NCBI GenBank assembly: GCA_902492505.1
Contig: CABULU010000002.1
Span: 18,908-82,907, forward strand
Direction of reading: 5' to 3'
Length of the DNA: 64,000 bases
From: an uncultured Eubacteriales bacterium
GTDB taxonomy: Bacteria; Bacillota; Clostridia; Oscillospirales; QAKW01
Shown here: piece by piece, positions 38,457 to 49,211 of the stretch
Layout of the letters: each line of letters opens with the position of its first letter
How positions within the stretch are numbered: the first letter of the stretch is position 1
Notes under the pieces: generated by a model
What the model was told of the DNA's origin: nothing
The model's database searches: none
Seen by the model: only the letters and a program-made list of their open reading frames with translations
Translations under genes and position numbers: made by a program

Positions 38457-38861
38457 ATGCGCTCATATATGGAAAAAAACGAACCGTCAGCTTGGTGGCT
38501 TAAGCCTCTGAAAATTGCTACTGTAATTTTGGCGTCAATTGCTGTAATGATGATTTTAACGATGATTTGCAGCGTGATTATTTTAAACAGCAAACTGCCG
38601 GAAAGCTCCGGAAGCGTAATGATGATGATAGTTTCCGCAATAACGTCAATTTTAATGTCTGTTCTTTTGACATTAAACACAAAATCCAAAGCTATTCTGA
38701 GTGCGCTGTTAGCGTTTGCGGTAATGTTTATTTTAAAGCTGATACTTACAAATATAATTGCACACGACATAGCATTCGGGCGCCAGGGGATAGTAGGTAT
38801 AATTTTTACGGCGGTATTCTGTATTATAGGTTCTCTCATAGGTGCCAACATTAAAAAATAG
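38457..38861 (+). CDS. Small polytopic membrane protein (YrzE/TIGR04086-like by position)
   Basis: 134 aa, about 4 TM helices, downstream of yajC as yrzE is in Bacillus. No motif recognised. Confidence 0.45.
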   Translation: MRSYMEKNEPSAWWLKPLKIATVILASIAVMMILTMICSVIILNSKLPESSGSVMMMIVSAITSILMSVLLTLNTKSKAILSALLAFAVMFILKLILTNIIAHDIAFGRQGIVGIIFTAVFCIIGSLIGANIKK

Positions 38862-38974
38862 CATTTTGCATAAAAATTAAAAATTATAAAATAACTATTG
38901 ACTTTTTTATTCGGCATATATTGTTTTTTTAAATAACTTTATTCAATATATTGTCTTAAAGCATTAGCCGCGAA

Positions 38975-39017
38975 GCCGGTTTACATAATCTTTTCATGCC
39001 GGTTTACATAATCTTTT
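38975..39017 (+). repeat. Perfect 20-bp direct repeat GCCGGTTTACATAATCTTTT x2, 23-bp period
   Basis: Copies at 38975-38994 and 38998-39017 are identical and separated by CAT. Confidence 0.95.
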
Positions 39018-39180
39018 ATAAACTATTAACAAAAAAGAGTTATTTTAATAAAACATCTTGATTAACCGCTTTTATTAGTGTAAAATTAATGCGTTGTCTG
39101 AATGCGGCTAATATATGATTTACATAATTTTTTGATAAGATTTACATATTTTAATCATAATATCAACGGCTTGTACATAA
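38978..39180 (-). promoter_or_regulatory. Array of five same-orientation XerD-arm-like half-sites (TTATGTAAAY on the - strand)
   Basis: On the + strand: GGTTTACATAA (38978, 39001), GATTTACATAA (39117), GATTTACATAT (39139), CTTGTACATAA (39170). The reverse complement TTATGTAAACC matches the XerD arm of B. subtilis dif (TTATGTAAACT) at 10 of 11 positions. Confidence 0.4.
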
Positions 39181-39209
39181 GTATTTACCGGGTTTAACCG
39201 GAGGTGTGT

Positions 39210-39785
39210 ATGTTGAAGTTTAAAAAAGCCGTTAATTTTATTTTTGAGTGTGAATTTAAAGTTGCAGCCGCACTTTCACTTTTCTTTATATTGGGAATGG
39301 TGTTTGGTGCTTTTTACAGCTGTAAGATGGATTTATCCGCAGATATGGCAGGCAACCTGATTACTGATGACGTTTTGTCTCTAATTCTTAAAAATCTACT
39401 GCTTCTTACAGTTGTCTTTTTAATGGGGTATACCGTAATCGGAGCCCCTCTTATTTGTTTTATTATTGTATACAGCGGCGTAAGCTGCGGTATGTTTCTT
39501 GGCATTTTTACAGGCTTTTACGGTTTTCGCGGATGCGTTGTAGCGGCAATTTGTTTCTATCTGTTTTATCTGATTAATCTAATGTCGCTTGTGTTTGTAT
39601 CTTTTTCGTCGCTGAGACTTTCTCTTGCGCTGTATAATGTCTTTAAAAATAATACGCGGTATGTTTCACCCGGAATTTATTCTAAGCCGCATATAGTTAA
39701 ATTCTCGGTTTTTGCTGCGCTTACATTATTTTCATGCTTATATTATGTTTATATCGCAAGGGGACTTGCTTTAATCTTGATTTGA
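39210..39785 (+). CDS. spoIIM: Stage II sporulation protein M-like membrane protein
   Basis: 191 aa from ATG 39210, with GGAGG 5 nt upstream. 'SLFFILGMVFGAF' and 'GYTVIGAPLICFIIVYSGVSCGMFLG' parallel B. subtilis SpoIIM. Adjacent to xerD as in Bacillus. Confidence 0.65.
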   Translation: MLKFKKAVNFIFECEFKVAAALSLFFILGMVFGAFYSCKMDLSADMAGNLITDDVLSLILKNLLLLTVVFLMGYTVIGAPLICFIIVYSGVSCGMFLGIFTGFYGFRGCVVAAICFYLFYLINLMSLVFVSFSSLRLSLALYNVFKNNTRYVSPGIYSKPHIVKFSVFAALTLFSCLYYVYIARGLALILI

Positions 39786-39799
39786 AAGGAGGAATTGTA

Positions 39800-40694
39800 G
39801 TGATTGAACTGTTTGAGGATTTTTGTGTCTATCTTAAAACCAAAAAAAAGATGTCTGAAAATACTCTTTCCTCATACAGACGCGATATTAAAAATTTTAT
39901 AATATTCCTCCAGAGTATTAACGTATATGCAATCGATAAAGTGGATGCGCAAATAATCTCGCAATATATTTCTTATCTTAAAAAACACAAAAAGAGTTGC
40001 GCTACGATTTCGAGAAACCTTTCAAGTATGCGTTGCTTTTTTAAATATCTTATTATGAAAAAGGTTATTACGTTTAATCCGACTACAGGCATTAAAAACG
40101 AGAAAAGTACGTCTTCGCTTCCGGAAATAATGTCCTCTCAGGATGTGGACACGCTTCTTTCGTCTCCTGATACAACCACTGTTCTGGGAATGCGCGACAA
40201 AGCCATGCTGGAACTTTTATACGCAACGGGAATCAGGGTCAGTGAGCTTTTAAATATAACTGTTTTTGACATCAATCTTGACGTTGGATATGTGAATGTT
40301 AAAAACAGCTCCACAAAGGAGCGCATTGTACCGTTGTATCCCATGGCGGTGGAGGCATTAAGATGTTATCTGAATTTATCAAGGGACAAGCTGGTTGATG
40401 GAAAAAGTGGGTCTGATATCCTCTTTCTTAATTCTACGGGCAGTCAAATGACAAGACAGGGATTTTATAAAACAGTATGCAAGACTTACTAAAATAAACG
40501 CGGTTATAACGCCTAAAATTCTGCGGCATTCTTTTGCTACACACCTACTTGAAAACGGTGCTGATATTAATGTAATAAAAGACATGCTCGGCCACACCGC
40601 CATTTCCTCCACAAAAGTGTATACAAAGGTTATAAAGAATAAATATATGAATGTATATGCCAACTGTCATCCTCGTGCAAAGCATATGCAGTGA
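39800..40694 (+). pseudogene. xerD: Tyrosine recombinase XerD; frame broken once (+1) in the A4 run 40469-40472, probably a base-call error
   Basis: GTG 39800 with AAGGAGG upstream. The N-terminal SAM-like domain and 'ATGIRVSEL' are in frame A, which stops at 40492. Frame B encodes '[54 protein letters not shown]' (HxxR, H, catalytic Y) to 40694. Joined length is 297 aa. Confidence 0.88.
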
Positions 40695-40723: not shown

Positions 40724-41464
40724 ATGGGTATATTTAATGACTATATGCGCGAAGGTCGCGGTATTGACAAGGGTCCAGATGAAAGACCACGATTTATAGT
40801 TTTTTTTGATATTTTATTCAGAAAATTCTGGAGTCTGATTAAAGTAAATCTATTGTTTGTTCTTGCGTGCATTCCTGTTGTAACTATCGGTCCTGCTATT
40901 GCCGGCATGACAAAAATATTACGTAATTATGCAAGAGAAGAGCACGCTTTTATATGGGCGGACTTTTGGGAGACCTTCAAGAAAAATTTCGGCAAAGCAA
41001 TGCTTATTGGAATTATAGATATTGTTGTTGCAGCAATCATTACATTTGATCTTTACATGTATACATCGCTTAACAGCTCTGCAATGGTGCGTACAATTGC
41101 ACTGGCTCTTATGTTTATTACTGCAACAATTTTTATATTTATGAATTATTATATTTTCCCTATGCTTATAACATTTAGACTGACCTTTAAGCAGCTTATC
41201 AAAAACGCATTTATATTTGCGTGGGTGGGCTTTTTCAGAAATCTTTTTGTTACTGTTTTAATTGCAGTTCTGACGCTGATAGCAGTACTTTATTTTCCGA
41301 CATTTGGCTATGTTTATGTTCTGCTTATATATTTCAGCCTGTGTGGGTTTATAATTAATTTTGCAACGTATCCGCTAATAAAGAGATATATGATAGACGG
41401 ATACGATCCCAACACGGGTGAGCGGCTTGAAGACACCGATAAAAATGAAGCATATGATGAATAA
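40724..41464 (+). CDS. DUF624 (YesL-family) membrane protein
   Basis: 246 aa. 'FFDILFRKFWSLIKVNLLFVLACIPVVTIGPAIAGMTKILRNY' is typical of YesL-like proteins. Confidence 0.7.
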   Translation: MGIFNDYMREGRGIDKGPDERPRFIVFFDILFRKFWSLIKVNLLFVLACIPVVTIGPAIAGMTKILRNYAREEHAFIWADFWETFKKNFGKAMLIGIIDIVVAAIITFDLYMYTSLNSSAMVRTIALALMFITATIFIFMNYYIFPMLITFRLTFKQLIKNAFIFAWVGFFRNLFVTVLIAVLTLIAVLYFPTFGYVYVLLIYFSLCGFIINFATYPLIKRYMIDGYDPNTGERLEDTDKNEAYDE

Positions 41465-41466
41465 TA

Positions 41467-41499
41467 AAAAGCAGACCGTTTTTACTGGTCTGCTTTAAT
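41467..41499. terminator. Bidirectional terminator at the convergence point of + and - transcription
   Basis: AAAGCAGACC-gtttttact-GGTCTGCTTT, flanked by A-run and T-run. Confidence 0.65.
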
Positions 41500-42466
41500 T
41501 ATTAATTTTTATATCGGAAACAGGATTTGCGTTTATAGCATTTTTGATTTTTTCACTGTCTACATGAGTGTAAATTTGAGTTGTGCCAAGATTTTCGTGA
41601 CCGAGAATTTCCTGAAGTACGCGTATGTCCACATTACCGTAGCGGTACATGAGCGTTGCCGCCGTATGACGCAGCTTATGAGTTGAATAATGCTTGTCAC
41701 CCAGACCGCTTTTTTTCAGACATTCTTCTACTATCTGCTGTACGCGGCGGCGGGTAATACGGTTTCCGTTTCGACTAACAAAAAGTGCCTGCCTTGCATC
41801 ATCTTTAAGATTATTATACGGTCGTTCGTTTTTTAAATAATCGTCAACAGCGTCTTTGCATGCTTTATTCAGGTAAATGCTACGCTGTTTGTTTCCTTTG
41901 CCGGTAATAGTTATATAGTCGTTGCCCAAATCACTTAAATTTATAGAAATAAGTTCTGCAAGGCGCATACCGCAATTTAAAAACAATGTAATCATAGCAA
42001 AGTCGCGTTTGCTGTTACTGCCGTCTTTCGCGGCACTTAAAAGCTGTTCACATTCGCTTAATGACAAGTGTACGGGCAGGGTATGGGGTAGAGCGCTGCT
42101 CTCGAGATTCTCAACAGGATTGCTTGTCAAAGCACCTGTTTTATTGCACATATACTTAAAGAAGCCTCGTATACTGCAGCATCTGCGGTTGAGCGTACGA
42201 TTGTTGCATTTGCGGTTTTCTTTCATGTAATAGAGATATTCATATGTATCTTCCAAAGTGACTTTTTTTAAGAATTCAATATCGACATCCGTGATATCTA
42301 TACTGTCTATGCTTTTACCAGTTTTGCATTTTATACTTTTAATAAAACGAAAATAACAACGTAAATCAAGGTAATACTCGTAAATAGTATTTTTTGATTT
42401 ACCTGTAACCACATCAAGATAAAACAGAAAATCCTTTATGGGTTTTGAAACGTCATCATAAGCCAT
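41495..42466 (-). CDS. Tyrosine-type site-specific recombinase (XerC-like/integrase family), intact
   Basis: 323 aa. N-terminal SAM-like domain; catalytic 'GMRLAEL', 'HKLRHTAATLMY', 'LGHENLGTTQIYTHV'. Confidence 0.85.
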   Translation of the reverse strand: MAYDDVSKPIKDFLFYLDVVTGKSKNTIYEYYLDLRCYFRFIKSIKCKTGKSIDSIDITDVDIEFLKKVTLEDTYEYLYYMKENRKCNNRTLNRRCCSIRGFFKYMCNKTGALTSNPVENLESSALPHTLPVHLSLSECEQLLSAAKDGSNSKRDFAMITLFLNCGMRLAELISINLSDLGNDYITITGKGNKQRSIYLNKACKDAVDDYLKNERPYNNLKDDARQALFVSRNGNRITRRRVQQIVEECLKKSGLGDKHYSTHKLRHTAATLMYRYGNVDIRVLQEILGHENLGTTQIYTHVDSEKIKNAINANPVSDIKINN

Positions 42467-42527: not shown

Positions 42528-42556
42528 TAATAGGGAGGTAATTTCATTAATCGTTC

Positions 42557-42586
42557 AACTACACAAAATGAATATTTTGTGTAGTT
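42557..42586. repeat. 13-bp perfect inverted repeat AACTACACAAAAT-gaat-ATTTTGTGTAGTT
   Basis: Read directly from the sequence. Lies between the P-loop gene stop (42638) and the recombinase promoter; no flanking U-tract. Confidence 0.9.
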
Positions 42587-42637
42587 AAGGGGACAAAAAA
42601 ATAAAACCTGATATTATAGCTCAGATTTTATTTTTAC

Positions 42638-43132
42638 TTACAATGTAGAAATTATTTCTGCTGTTTGATATTCATTTATATTTGATGTGTCGATTTTTAG
42701 TGTTTTTAAAGAACTATAACAAGCAAGACGGTTAACGCTTCGATCAATTATATCATTGTTTCGTTTTCCCGATAATATATCTTTTTCTAAACGCTTTATC
42801 AGATTTTTTTGATCACATACAAGCGAAATATTTATAATTTCACAATCAGACAAATTGATACGTGATAAGATTGTATCTATAATTTCCTGATTATGCAAAA
42901 CCCAACAAAATATTATATTTTCAATTTCATTACAGCCAATAAAATTGTTCAGCATATAACAGATATTATCCAAAACTAATTTTTTCGTACAGCTGTTTAC
43001 TATAAACGGATTAATATCCCAGCACCAATCGCCGTCAAGCATTACGCTCATATCAAGACGTTTTTTCAGTATATTACAAACTGTTGTTTTTCCAACGCCC
43101 ATCGTACCGCCAATTATATATAATTTTTTCAT
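42638..43132 (-). CDS. Small P-loop NTPase / nucleotide-kinase-like protein (AAA-family annotation class)
   Basis: 164 aa. Walker A 'GGTMGVGKTT'. GC is roughly 23-33% in two 60-nt lines counted by hand, against about 40-43% in neighbouring genes. Confidence 0.6.
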   Translation of the reverse strand: MKKLYIIGGTMGVGKTTVCNILKKRLDMSVMLDGDWCWDINPFIVNSCTKKLVLDNICYMLNNFIGCNEIENIIFCWVLHNQEIIDTILSRINLSDCEIINISLVCDQKNLIKRLEKDILSGKRNNDIIDRSVNRLACYSSLKTLKIDTSNINEYQTAEIISTL

Positions 43133-44308: not shown

Positions 44309-45001
44309 TTACTGTTGATCTTTCCCGTCAAATTTATATTTTAGTTTATCAAGTGCCTTCTTTTCTATACGTGAAACATAGCTACGCGAAATTCGCATTT
44401 TTTTTGCAACTTCTTTTTGTGTAAGGCTTTTTGTATTATAAAGACCGTAACGCATGGTTATTATCATTTTTTCTCGTTCCGGCAGATCCTTGATGTATGA
44501 ATACAGACGTTTTGTGTTTATTTTGAGGTCAATGCAGTCGGCGATATCATCTTCCTGACATACAATGTCCATATATGTCAGCGAATTTCCGTCATCGTCA
44601 ACGTCAATCGGATCGCTTATAAAAGTCTCATTTTGCGTTTTACGCTGCGAACGGAAAAACATTAAAATCTCATTTTCAATACATTTAGCGGCGTATGTTG
44701 CAAGCTTGGTTTTTTTTACCGGCTTGTATGACGTAATGCCTTTTATAAGACCTATTGTACCTATTGAAATTAAATCCTCCTGGTCAGAGCTGTTTGCATA
44801 ATATTTTTTGATAACGTGCGCGACCAGACGCAAATTCCGCTCAATAAGAATGTCTCTGGCTGCTTTGTCACCCTGAGCAAGCTTTTCAATGTAATATTGC
44901 TCTTCACTCGGAGTAAGCGGTTTCGGAAAAGATGCGCCGTTTGATATATATAATATCAAAAACATAAAATTATCAAAGAGACTGCTGAATAGTTCAAACA
45001 T
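44309..45001 (-). CDS. sigK: Sporulation sigma factor SigK (pro-sigma-K), uninterrupted
   Basis: 'YISNGASFPKPLTPSEEQYYIEKLAQGDKAARDILIERNLRLVAHVIKKY' and 'ISRSYVSRIEKKAL' parallel B. subtilis pro-sigma-K (YVKNNAFPQPLSSSEE..; ISRSYVSRIEKRAL). Confidence 0.85.
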   Translation of the reverse strand: MFELFSSLFDNFMFLILYISNGASFPKPLTPSEEQYYIEKLAQGDKAARDILIERNLRLVAHVIKKYYANSSDQEDLISIGTIGLIKGITSYKPVKKTKLATYAAKCIENEILMFFRSQRKTQNETFISDPIDVDDDGNSLTYMDIVCQEDDIADCIDLKINTKRLYSYIKDLPEREKMIITMRYGLYNTKSLTQKEVAKKMRISRSYVSRIEKKALDKLKYKFDGKDQQ

Positions 45002-45048
45002 ATAATCACCCTTGATAATATATATGTCAGCCAAATTTTCGTATACCG

Positions 45049-48122: not shown

Positions 48123-49211
48123 ATGACTAATAATTCAAATAGCAAAAAGATAAGTTTTATCATCAATATTGTATATATTATGATAATTTTATTTGTCATA
48201 TATATTATTCTGCGTTATGCATTTCCCGTATTTTTACCGTTTATTATTGCTCTCGCAGTCAGTTACCTAGCTGAGCCTGCAATTAAATTTTTAACATCTA
48301 AGTTGAAGATAAAAAGAAGCATTTGTTCTGTGGTATGTATAACATTTCTCTTATTTTTACTTATCGGAGCTTTCGCTTTAATGTCGGTAACGGTTATTTC
48401 AAAGCTAAAACAGATGTATGAAGATATGCCGAAAATCATTGAGCAAATTACTGCATATTTTGACAATCTAAGAATAAAAAATGACTATGATCTGATAACT
48501 CCATTTGAACAACTAACGCTCAGGTTATTTGAATATTTAAAAAATATTGATATAATCACGTTGTTCAGCGGAAGTTTCGGAAGCGTTGCATTACGCTCAT
48601 TCTCCGGATTTGTAGCTACTATTCCGTATGCGCTGATGACTCTTATTATCACCTTTGTATCGTCTATTTTCATATCTGTTTCATTTTGTGAAATCAAAAC
48701 ATTTATATTGATGCAATTCAGCGAAAATAACAGACAACTGATTTTTGAAACCAAACGAAGTACAGCAGGGATATTTAAAAATTATGTAAAATCCTATGCA
48801 GCACTTATGCTTATTACTTTTTTAGAATTAACACTGTTTTTTATAATATTTGATATAAAACCCGCCGCTTCAATCGCACTAATAATCGCTGTGGTGGATA
48901 TCCTGCCGGTGCTCGGAGTCGGAACGGTCATGATACCATGGGCGATCATATGCTTTATAGGTGGAAATATTACAAAAGGATTGATTCTATTATCAATTTA
49001 TGCTGTAATCACCATTGTCAGGCAAATAATAGAGCCTAAAATTATAGGTGAAAATATCGGTTTGCATCCAATTGTTACGTTAATTGCCATATATGTCGGT
49101 CTGAAGCTTTTGGGAATACTCGGTATGTTTATAATGCCGATACTGATAATGCTTGCAAGGGACTTACAAAAAAAGGGGTATATTCATCTATGGAACGAAA
49201 AAAACAGTTGA
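48123..49211 (+). CDS. AI-2E family transporter / sporulation integral membrane protein YtvI-like
   Basis: 362 aa, about 8 TM helices. 'DILPVLGVGTVMIPWAI' and 'IVRQIIEPKIIGENIGLHP' are typical of PF01594. Confidence 0.7.
   Translation: MTNNSNSKKISFIINIVYIMIILFVIYIILRYAFPVFLPFIIALAVSYLAEPAIKFLTSKLKIKRSICSVVCITFLLFLLIGAFALMSVTVISKLKQMYEDMPKIIEQITAYFDNLRIKNDYDLITPFEQLTLRLFEYLKNIDIITLFSGSFGSVALRSFSGFVATIPYALMTLIITFVSSIFISVSFCEIKTFILMQFSENNRQLIFETKRSTAGIFKNYVKSYAALMLITFLELTLFFIIFDIKPAASIALIIAVVDILPVLGVGTVMIPWAIICFIGGNITKGLILLSIYAVITIVRQIIEPKIIGENIGLHPIVTLIAIYVGLKLLGILGMFIMPILIMLARDLQKKGYIHLWNEKNS

Follow-up and report, generated by a model that had tools for sequence, protein, structure and literature searches.

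What might a cluster of XerD-arm-like repeats be doing in front of a gene for XerD? The question is raised by a 64,000-nucleotide stretch of DNA from an uncultured Eubacteriales bacterium (contig CABULU010000002.1, positions 18,908 to 82,907; hereafter the window), in which the spacer upstream of a spoIIM-like gene and xerD carries an array of short direct repeats that look like one arm of dif, the site of chromosome-dimer resolution. We propose that XerD binds these half-sites without XerC and regulates the spoIIM-like-xerD operon, a joint proposition, read from sequence comparison, in which we place about even confidence. The elements of the spacer are the following.

38862-39209, + strand: AT-rich intergenic spacer of 348 bp between the DUF3792/TIGR04086 gene and the spoIIM-like gene
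38975-38994, + strand: repeat unit 1, 20-mer GCCGGTTTACATAATCTTTT, with its core GGTTTACATAAT at 38978-38989
38998-39017, + strand: repeat unit 2, 20-mer GCCGGTTTACATAATCTTTT, with its core at 39001-39012, 23 bp after unit 1
39058-39086, + strand: predicted sigma-A-like promoter TTGATT-17-TAAAAT, between copies 2 and 3, 9/12 matches
39117-39128, + strand: copy 3, GATTTACATAAT, with the exact 9-mer TTTACATAA at 39119
39139-39150, + strand: copy 4, 12-bp form GATTTACATATT of a near copy (GATTTACATAT at 39139-39149, 9-mer at 39141), a degenerate half-site in which ATAT replaces ATAA
39155-39183, + strand: candidate sigma-E-type promoter, TCATAAT, a 14-bp spacer and CATAAGTA at 39176-83
39169-39180, + strand: copy 5, 12-bp form of a near copy (CTTGTACATAA at 39170-39180, 9-mer at 39172)

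Units 1 and 2 are 100% identical 20-mers with a period of 23 bp, and the five copies, all on the + strand, start 23, 116, 22 and 31 bp apart. A preliminary description of this locus had reported the perfect 20-bp tandem repeat, its period and the common strand, all of which the sequence check confirmed; it had also counted five copies of (G)RTTTACATAA, which holds exactly for copies 1 to 3, while copies 4 and 5 are each one base off the 9-mer and copy 5 differs from the 12-mer at four positions. RTTTACATAA occurs four times in the window against 0.88 expected, a count reached by 0 of 100 shuffles, and three of the four occurrences lie in the spacer. The Poisson probability of finding at least three exact 9-mers in a spacer of such composition is about 1e-5. 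A similar motif density in other AT-rich spacers had been named as an observation that would speak against the array, and it was not seen: among the 16 spacers that the window was found to contain, the 15 others (together 4.8 kb) yielded a single match with one mismatch. The clustering of the motif in this spacer exceeds a chance or composition effect. Another short word, TTTGCATAA, is also frequent in the window (11 occurrences against 2.46 expected, 0/100 shuffles), mostly in coding sequence and with flanks that are not common to its occurrences.

The identity of the motif is best seen on the opposite strand. Reverse-complemented, the core GGTTTACATAAT reads ATTATGTAAACC, a half-site of the XerD-arm type, and TTATGTAAACC equals the XerD arm of Bacillus subtilis dif, TTATGTAAACT, at 10 of 11 positions; the preliminary description had pointed to this match, which stands against the dif sequence in the supplement of PMC3025954. 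In comparison with 18 published dif predictions, the XerD-arm pattern TTATGTHAANT is satisfied by TTATGTAAACC (twice) and by TTATGTAAATC. Predicted dif sites end in ...ATATATTATGTAAACT in Bacillus, Staphylococcus and Lactobacillus, in ...ATTATGTTAACT in the B. cereus group, in ...ATTATGTCAAGT in Alicyclobacillus and in ...ATTATGTTAACC in Acholeplasma laidlawii (Kono et al. 2011, PMC3025954 supplement). Across related loci the motif takes the forms ATTATGT[A/T/C]AAC[C/T], varying at the 7th base, where the XerD arm varies too, and its variants reproduce the XerD halves of predicted Firmicutes and Tenericutes dif sites (for example ATTATGTAAACT, ATTATGTTAACT and the Acholeplasma site ending in TTATGTTAACC). 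At the level of sequence, the motif cannot be told apart from the XerD half of dif in Firmicutes. One Lachnospiraceae locus (L121, 2908-2980) holds a canonical dif, ACGTCTGATAA TAAATA TTATGTAAACC, scoring 28.0 bits, the XerD arm of which is one copy of a motif pair; the second copy, oriented alike, is located 44 bp outside that arm. Because this dif contains the 12-mer, the 12-mer is an XerD arm in actual use in a Clostridial dif.

The window copies themselves have no second arm. No inverted partner was found at 6-bp distance from any of them, all five being direct repeats, and the 11 bp that a partner arm would occupy are unconserved among the five to seven closest species, in agreement with the earlier remark that no copy has a convincing XerC arm. 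A profile built from 18 published dif sites, with which known sites score 22-42 bits, detected no canonical dif, whether in the 64-kb window or in the next 8.5 kb (best window 28-mer 7.9 bits; shuffled sequence 6.7-14.6 bits), and the view that the array is no canonical dif was upheld. In the sister clade, a possible XerC arm next to copy 2 (L062: AATCTGCATAA ATTACA TTATGTAAACC) was discarded, its register being 1 nt off in 5/12 species; the block AATCTGCATAA is better read as a degenerate third copy or as a -35-like GGTTTKACAAAAA. Two further loci were recorded in the course of these searches. L080 is a weaker dif-like case (19 bits) with four motif copies within about 120 bp. In a Sedimentibacter metagenome-assembled genome (L026, 360-430), three direct copies follow each other with a 21-bp period and the third forms an almost perfect palindrome of 11-6-11 layout, GGTTTACATAA ATAAAA ATATGTAAACC; this is possibly the dif of that organism with two flanking half-sites.

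We then asked whether the array is maintained. Homologues of the SpoIIM-like protein at 83, 74, 65 and 56% identity gave four more species and an alignment of five, in which the gene order yajC, DUF3792, spacer of about 350 bp, spoIIM-like, xerD, DUF624 and convergent recombinase is common to all. Both the length of the spacer and its internal blocks are kept. All five copies stand out as invariant islands amid diverged sequence, with 50/60 motif columns invariant in the five species against 93/278 in the rest of the spacer (Fisher p = 9e-13). The core of unit 1 is invariant at 11/12 columns and the TTTACATAA of copy 3 throughout, and copy 4 is kept in its degenerate form across the aligned species. 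Between copies 1 and 2 the bases are unconserved and the 23-bp period is kept; the same period recurs in 16/16 genome-scan representatives of the window's clade (groups A_win and A_sis), and, in line with copy 3, the clade has a copy at +139 to +146. A fixed period around unconserved bases rules out a recent duplication. Remnants of integrative mobile elements exploiting Xer (IMEX) or of decayed dif sites, the latter being an alternative of the preliminary description, are ruled out by the conservation of every copy and by the 23-bp period in the 16 species representatives. The alignment of related spoIIM upstream regions that had been suggested there thus shows an array conserved in five species. 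The SpoIIM-like protein was found in many gut and rumen metagenome assemblies, the spacer being nearly identical within the species of the window. Other elements of the spacer are kept as well. ATATATTGT is present twice (38915-38923 and 38945-38954, 31 bp apart), its second copy within a 10-bp palindrome, CAATATATTG, that precedes copy 1 by about 25 bp; this element is kept across species, and the sister clade keeps 'TGTG' at equal distance. The block TAGCAnnTTGCATAAA (38863-38876) at the start of the spacer overlaps the stop codon of the upstream gene and is kept in 5/5 species.

The copies are arranged around predicted promoters. Both hexamers of the sigma-A-like promoter are kept across species (blocks CTTGA and TGTA.AATT). 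With respect to its predicted start site, the pair of units lies about 90-110 bp upstream and one or two sites lie 25-50 bp downstream; copy 3 is at about +24. The last copy is a different case. Sigma-E promoters of Clostridioides difficile and B. subtilis have a -35 'ATA' and a -10 'CATA' 16-18 bp apart (PMC3789822), a rule that ATA (39157-59), 16 nt and CATAAGTA fit, and the TCATA and GCTTG.ACATA blocks are invariant in the five species together with their spacing. Because four of its 12-mer positions differ, we treat copy 5 as a promoter element: it probably serves a sigma-E-type sporulation promoter as its -10 box rather than XerD as a site, and the fifth half-site of the preliminary description is better replaced by this reading. 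Other promoter readings were tried and rejected. Sigma-70 promoters made from the repeats themselves (TTTACA as -35 and the CATAAT of the next copy as -10) would have spacers of 20-21 nt, which is too long; a high-scoring candidate of the scan, TTGATA-18-CATAAT, is not conserved; and sigma-G, -F or -K readings of copies 1-4 fail on spacings that misfit and on gene sets elsewhere that are not sporulation genes.

In order to see where else such arrays occur, we searched 185,579 species, each represented by a single genome, for pairs of 12-mers that share a strand and are separated by 5-35 nt and obtained 110 loci, whereas we estimate the chance expectation for the whole scan at less than one pair. 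In 25 of the 110 loci, an xerD gene follows on the same strand at a distance of 0.8-1.0 kb (0.2 kb in L089, where the array directly precedes xerD with no spoIIM-like gene between), and its product is 36-79% identical to that of the window; the recombinases of the xerD-linked loci match TIGR02225 best, at 305-350 bits. Eight more tiles stop before xerD yet have the same array architecture or upstream genes. In two Acholeplasmataceae loci the pair adjoins a hemN-like gene; L075 is the one that shows xerD as well, and there the pair stands upstream of a hemN-like-xerD operon. The spacings fall into three architectures: period 23 with a copy about 140 bp downstream in the window's clade; three copies with periods 14 and 20 in an Oscillospiraceae group; and periods 33-36 and 13 in Acutalibacteraceae/Ruminococcus (group C), where the predicted -35 box reads GGTTGACATAAT. 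In all three, the copies without exception have the strand of xerD, and one or more of them is found past the predicted sigma-A-like promoter. Many xerD-linked loci of other clades show a change of gene orientation 1-3 kb past the operon, which is not seen in the sister clade.

Taken together, these observations suggest how the array might work. Copies 1-3, and more weakly copy 4, would be XerC-independent sites for the XerD encoded in the operon immediately downstream. E. coli XerD is able to bind its dif half-site independently. Since each site is the XerD half of dif without a partner arm, the recombinase could bind there and recombination would not be possible. XerD held at sites that flank the predicted promoter would then exert a feedback on transcription of the spoIIM-like and xerD genes, by roadblock and/or by bridging upstream and downstream sites. 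Binding by XerD is the simplest reading because it covers the motif identity, the missing XerC arms, the conservation and the linkage to xerD, and autoregulation is our first choice because the promoter-flanking geometry recurs with different spacings in three architectures; the comparative pattern points to it at least as strongly as to a role in the terminus. As the operon is 2.4 kb from the terminus, the same dense platform of XerD might also act like the XDS sites of B. subtilis, at which SMC is unloaded; such an XDS-like SMC-unloading role of the array is possible. Binding by XerD, the sign of any regulation and any effect on SMC are all inferred from the sequence.

Several other candidates were examined and set aside. 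A structured RNA or DNA was rejected on fold z-scores of -0.1 to +0.6 (both strands, both array halves), with Rfam at E <= 1 giving only chance matches elsewhere, and an RNA-level element on the orientation of the motif relative to transcription, which is mixed across loci. Phage origin was dismissed with only 12 matches in 2.9 million viral contigs. The BirA operator (TGTAAACC...GGTTTACA) is an inverted repeat, whereas the array consists of direct repeats. Direct repeats of the OmpR/WalR/PhoP or LytTR type need fixed periods of 11 or 21-22 bp, and those observed range over 13-47 bp with all 12 bases fixed.

A number of facts weigh against XerD binding and autoregulation. The assignment to XerD depends on identity to dif arms, and the promoters are predictions. 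The xerD gene of the window is frameshifted, while its array is identical to that of strains with an intact xerD. In the literature searched, we found no report of xerD autoregulation. The motif is confined neither to the terminus nor to xerD. Eleven of the 110 loci are irrelevant, being coding repeats or long tandem repeats (Gly-Leu-His-Asn coding repeats in L088, L071, L079 and L051/57; long tandem repeats in L040/41, L043, L072, L083 and L094). The 66 that remain once the 25 xerD-linked loci and the eight truncated tiles are also set aside comprise about 55 intergenic pairs or triples, mostly from Lachnospiraceae, with periods of 17-47 bp, which abut the starts of unrelated housekeeping genes in either orientation. 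The Lachnospiraceae pairs (L033, L067, L073, L090; also L109, L125 and L046/L028) occupy the dnaN-yaaA, yaaA-recF, recF-downstream and soj-spo0J spacers, which belong to origin-proximal operons, and are also found in the pyrB-pyrI spacer, just before mreB and aroK, and at cdd and argB, with no functional theme in common. The skew is uniform on both sides of these dispersed loci, which are therefore not at a skew switch. Over the 110 loci, no gene family recurs in more than three apart from the genes that flank xerD-linked arrays. Two related tiles of small genes (L096, 3000-7200; L127, 2400-4650) carry a motif cluster in every spacer, in the order minus, minus, plus; these clusters resemble the 'dif modules' of plasmids but are without 11-6-11 sites. 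Such a scatter fits a dispersed regulator or architectural protein better than an operator specific to xerD or an element of the terminus, and the Lachnospiraceae pairs are left unaccounted for by autoregulation of xerD. A broader proposal, which we put forward tentatively and rate as rather unlikely, is that Clostridial XerD, or a close Xer paralogue, is a sequence-specific DNA-binding factor independent of recombination; its half-site arrays at its own promoter, beside dif and in dozens of spacers, among them those of the origin-proximal dnaN-recF and soj-spo0J operons and of closely linked gene pairs like pyrB-pyrI, would form a genome-wide 'regulon' or roadblock network not limited to the terminus.

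The genes around the spacer and the change of strand beyond them are as follows.

38457-38861: DUF3792/TIGR04086 membrane-protein gene, upstream of the spacer
39210-39785, + strand: spoIIM-like gene encoding a 191-aa polytopic membrane protein, a sub-threshold member of the SpoIIM family
39800-40694, + strand: xerD, with an 8-bp deletion after 40464, hence a frame shift and a stop at 40492
40724-41464, + strand: DUF624 membrane protein gene, the last of the + strand block
41000-42000: region in which the GC skew changes sign and the genes switch orientation (apparent replication terminus)
41495-42466, - strand: second Xer-type tyrosine recombinase, XerC-like, convergent with the xerD block (TIGR02224 229.7 against 335, sub-threshold)

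The label 'spoIIM' of the preliminary description is a weak one: PF01944 is matched by 6/10 members of the family (best E-value 1.4e-9) and relatives score 42-61 bits, whereas the window protein reaches 26.4 bits with TIGR02831 against a cut-off of 100 and has no Pfam match. The 8 bp TTGGAAAA, absent from xerD at 40464/40465, are present in the conspecific contigs L001 and L004, and contig L003 has the same allele as the window. The frameshift removes the C-terminal catalytic part of the window XerD and may be a real pseudogene allele or an assembly variant. The intact conspecific XerD has 300 aa and passes the NCBIfam equivalog cut-off of TIGR02225 (331.9 against 329.6); its best relative of solved structure is E. 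coli XerD (1a0p, E = 4.6e-54). From 1 to about 33 kb the GC skew has values of +0.11 to +0.20, and between 42 and 64 kb values of -0.05 to -0.15; its cumulative maximum at 41-42 kb coincides with the convergence of the genes. As a change from positive to negative skew marks the terminus, the array lies about 2.4 kb from it; the location in the terminus region given earlier is supported, skew and gene orientation both flipping at about 41.5 kb. In conspecific contigs the - strand block continues for 8.5 kb more. At the switch itself, a GC-rich hairpin of about 30 bp (41468-41494) between the convergent DUF624 and recombinase genes is likely a bidirectional terminator. An AT-rich palindrome upstream of the recombinase gene (42556-42647) gave weak Rfam 'mir-374' matches on both strands, which we take as chance. 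Three kilobases past the terminus, sigK (44309-45034, - strand) is uninterrupted, with no intervening element (TIGR02846 305 bits against a cut-off of 299). A lone TTATGTAAAAT at 48782-48792 (+ strand), in a gene for an AI-2E-family transporter 7 kb beyond the skew switch, has the mirror orientation of the array and no XerC arm, and is probably due to chance.

The primary job of the array could be chromosomal, a natural tandem XDS where XerD, bound on its own, would block or unload the Smc-ScpAB complexes that come from the origin; its adjacency to xerD would then be incidental to the location of xerD at the terminus. Unloading by XerD at XDS sites is established in B. subtilis, where an artificial XDS array blocks SMC translocation (as quoted in PMC11840125), and it has been argued that an extruder taking large steps is trapped better by several sites in a cluster (PMC10945525). 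The skew switch at 2.4 kb, the orientation flip described above for many loci of other clades and the extra half-site beside dif in L121 all suit this explanation, the definition of XDS itself being second-hand, from citing papers. Yet no matching array was found across the switch in the 30 kb examined, which hold one isolated in-gene site at 48782; the sites keep a fixed relation to the predicted operon promoter in three architectures; + strand genes of the sister clade run more than 4 kb past the operon; and motif pairs occur in origin-proximal operons of Lachnospiraceae. We consider a primarily chromosomal role rather unlikely. The Lachnospiraceae pairs, which abut unrelated housekeeping gene starts and number several per 8 kb on both strands in some genomes, lead instead to the thought that the repeats are operators of another DNA-binding protein, a global regulator or nucleoid-associated protein of Clostridia that binds direct repeats at many promoters, their XerD-arm likeness being coincidental. 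TTTACA-N5-TTTTCA-N6-TTTACA in copies 1-2 has the 11-12 bp sub-period of OmpR-family regulator sites. However, all 12 positions are kept, including the ATTATG part that an OmpR-type TGTWAH half-site does not need, and periods of 13, 14, 20, 23 and 33-36 (17-47 elsewhere) match no fixed dimer geometry. The recurrent partner is xerD (25/110 loci), SpoIIM-like, DUF3792, SDR-type and DnaD-domain neighbours all flanking xerD-linked arrays, and the motif is found in Acholeplasmataceae as well as in Clostridia, as broad a range as is typical of XerD/dif specificity. An unrelated protein is a possibility to which we give about the same modest weight as to the chromosomal role.

That this lineage has its functional dif in or beside the array, with one copy paired to a diverged XerC-like arm read by the second recombinase and the others accessory, appears very improbable. 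Its attraction lies in the empty profile search (7.9 bits at best against 22-42), in the two Xer-type recombinase genes that flank the skew switch, in an inverted arm 6 bp from a copy in a few relatives (L062, L018, L106, L104 and L026) and in L121 and L080, which join a dif-like site with extra half-sites. Against this stand the purely direct orientation of the window copies, the lack of conservation where the partner arm should be and, for the sister-clade candidate arm, a 1-nt shift that would alter the length of the central region. Moreover, the distance between a predicted dif site and the skew shift can reach about 1.4% of the genome (1 sigma, with outliers to 3%), and dif may thus be outside the window (PMC3025954). 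We regard as close to negligible the chance that the repeats are, unrelated to Xer, iterated promoter elements or sporulation-regulator operators of spoIIM. B. subtilis spoIIM depends on sigma-E, the motif contains CATAAT, and copy 5 with TCATAAT makes a good sigma-E-type promoter (ATA-16 nt-CATA) of invariant spacing; this much of the sporulation alternative in the preliminary description remains, as it concerns copy 5. For copies 1-4 the spacings do not fit, periods of 22-23 bp giving no sigma-E, -K or -G arrangement. The array also persists without the spoIIM-like gene (L089) and in Acholeplasmataceae, which do not sporulate, and the SpoIIM-like gene of C. difficile is not sigma-E or sigma-F dependent (PMC3789822).

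Dif and XerD-only sites are already known; what appears new is a conserved natural tandem array of half-sites in the promoter region of xerD itself, of which we found no description in the literature searched. XerD-only sites come so far, as the citing papers present them, from one B. subtilis study, with an artificial array that blocks SMC, and from supporting data in S. aureus. The array described here is a natural, conserved tandem version, placed in the xerD promoter close to the terminus, and a large group of Clostridia that live uncultured in gut and rumen have it. Should XerD bind there, the synthesis of a housekeeping recombinase would be under its own control via recombination-dead half-sites, which is undescribed for Xer proteins, and the array would offer a compact, portable natural element for asking how many close XerD sites are needed to stop or unload SMC. 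The spread of the 12-mer in Lachnospiraceae suggests that evolution may have put the XerD half-site to use far outside the terminus.

The nearest known relatives of the array are the XDS sites of the B. subtilis terminus (Karaboja et al. 2021, Mol Cell, whose definition we take from papers citing it), which XerD binds without XerC (PMC11840125 and PMC10945525). Like them, the array is made of dif-like sites of the terminus region that have a conserved XerD half and no functional XerC half and would be no recombination substrates; XDS sites are bound by XerD, and the array agrees with them in its bases and its position. It differs in being a tight group of 3-4 same-strand copies in about 170 bp, inside the xerD promoter region and conserved across Oscillospirales, and in a motif that also occurs away from the terminus in other Clostridia. 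With the 28-bp XerC/XerD site dif it shares the 11-12 bp XerD arm and the proximity of the GC-skew shift, whereas dif has an inverted XerC arm at 6 bp, is not a series of direct copies and scores far higher with the profile. The matS sites of E. coli, through which MatP keeps the SMC complex out, are also short sites repeated in the terminus domain, but the protein is unrelated and the site palindromic, and matS is dispersed over hundreds of kilobases with no tandem array. With the arm-type sites of lambda-family integrases, too, a tyrosine recombinase binds direct repeats that lie away from the crossover core; these are recognized by a separate N-terminal domain, absent in XerD, and are unlike the core in sequence, whereas the repeats described here are core-arm sequences. 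A parallel for control is offered by the res sites of Tn3 and gamma-delta, where several sites for a recombinase lie in the promoter region of its own gene and the resolvase represses that gene via its sites in the tnpA-tnpR intergenic region. Resolvase, however, is a serine recombinase and res is also a site of recombination, while the array would serve a tyrosine recombinase with sites that look incompetent for recombination.

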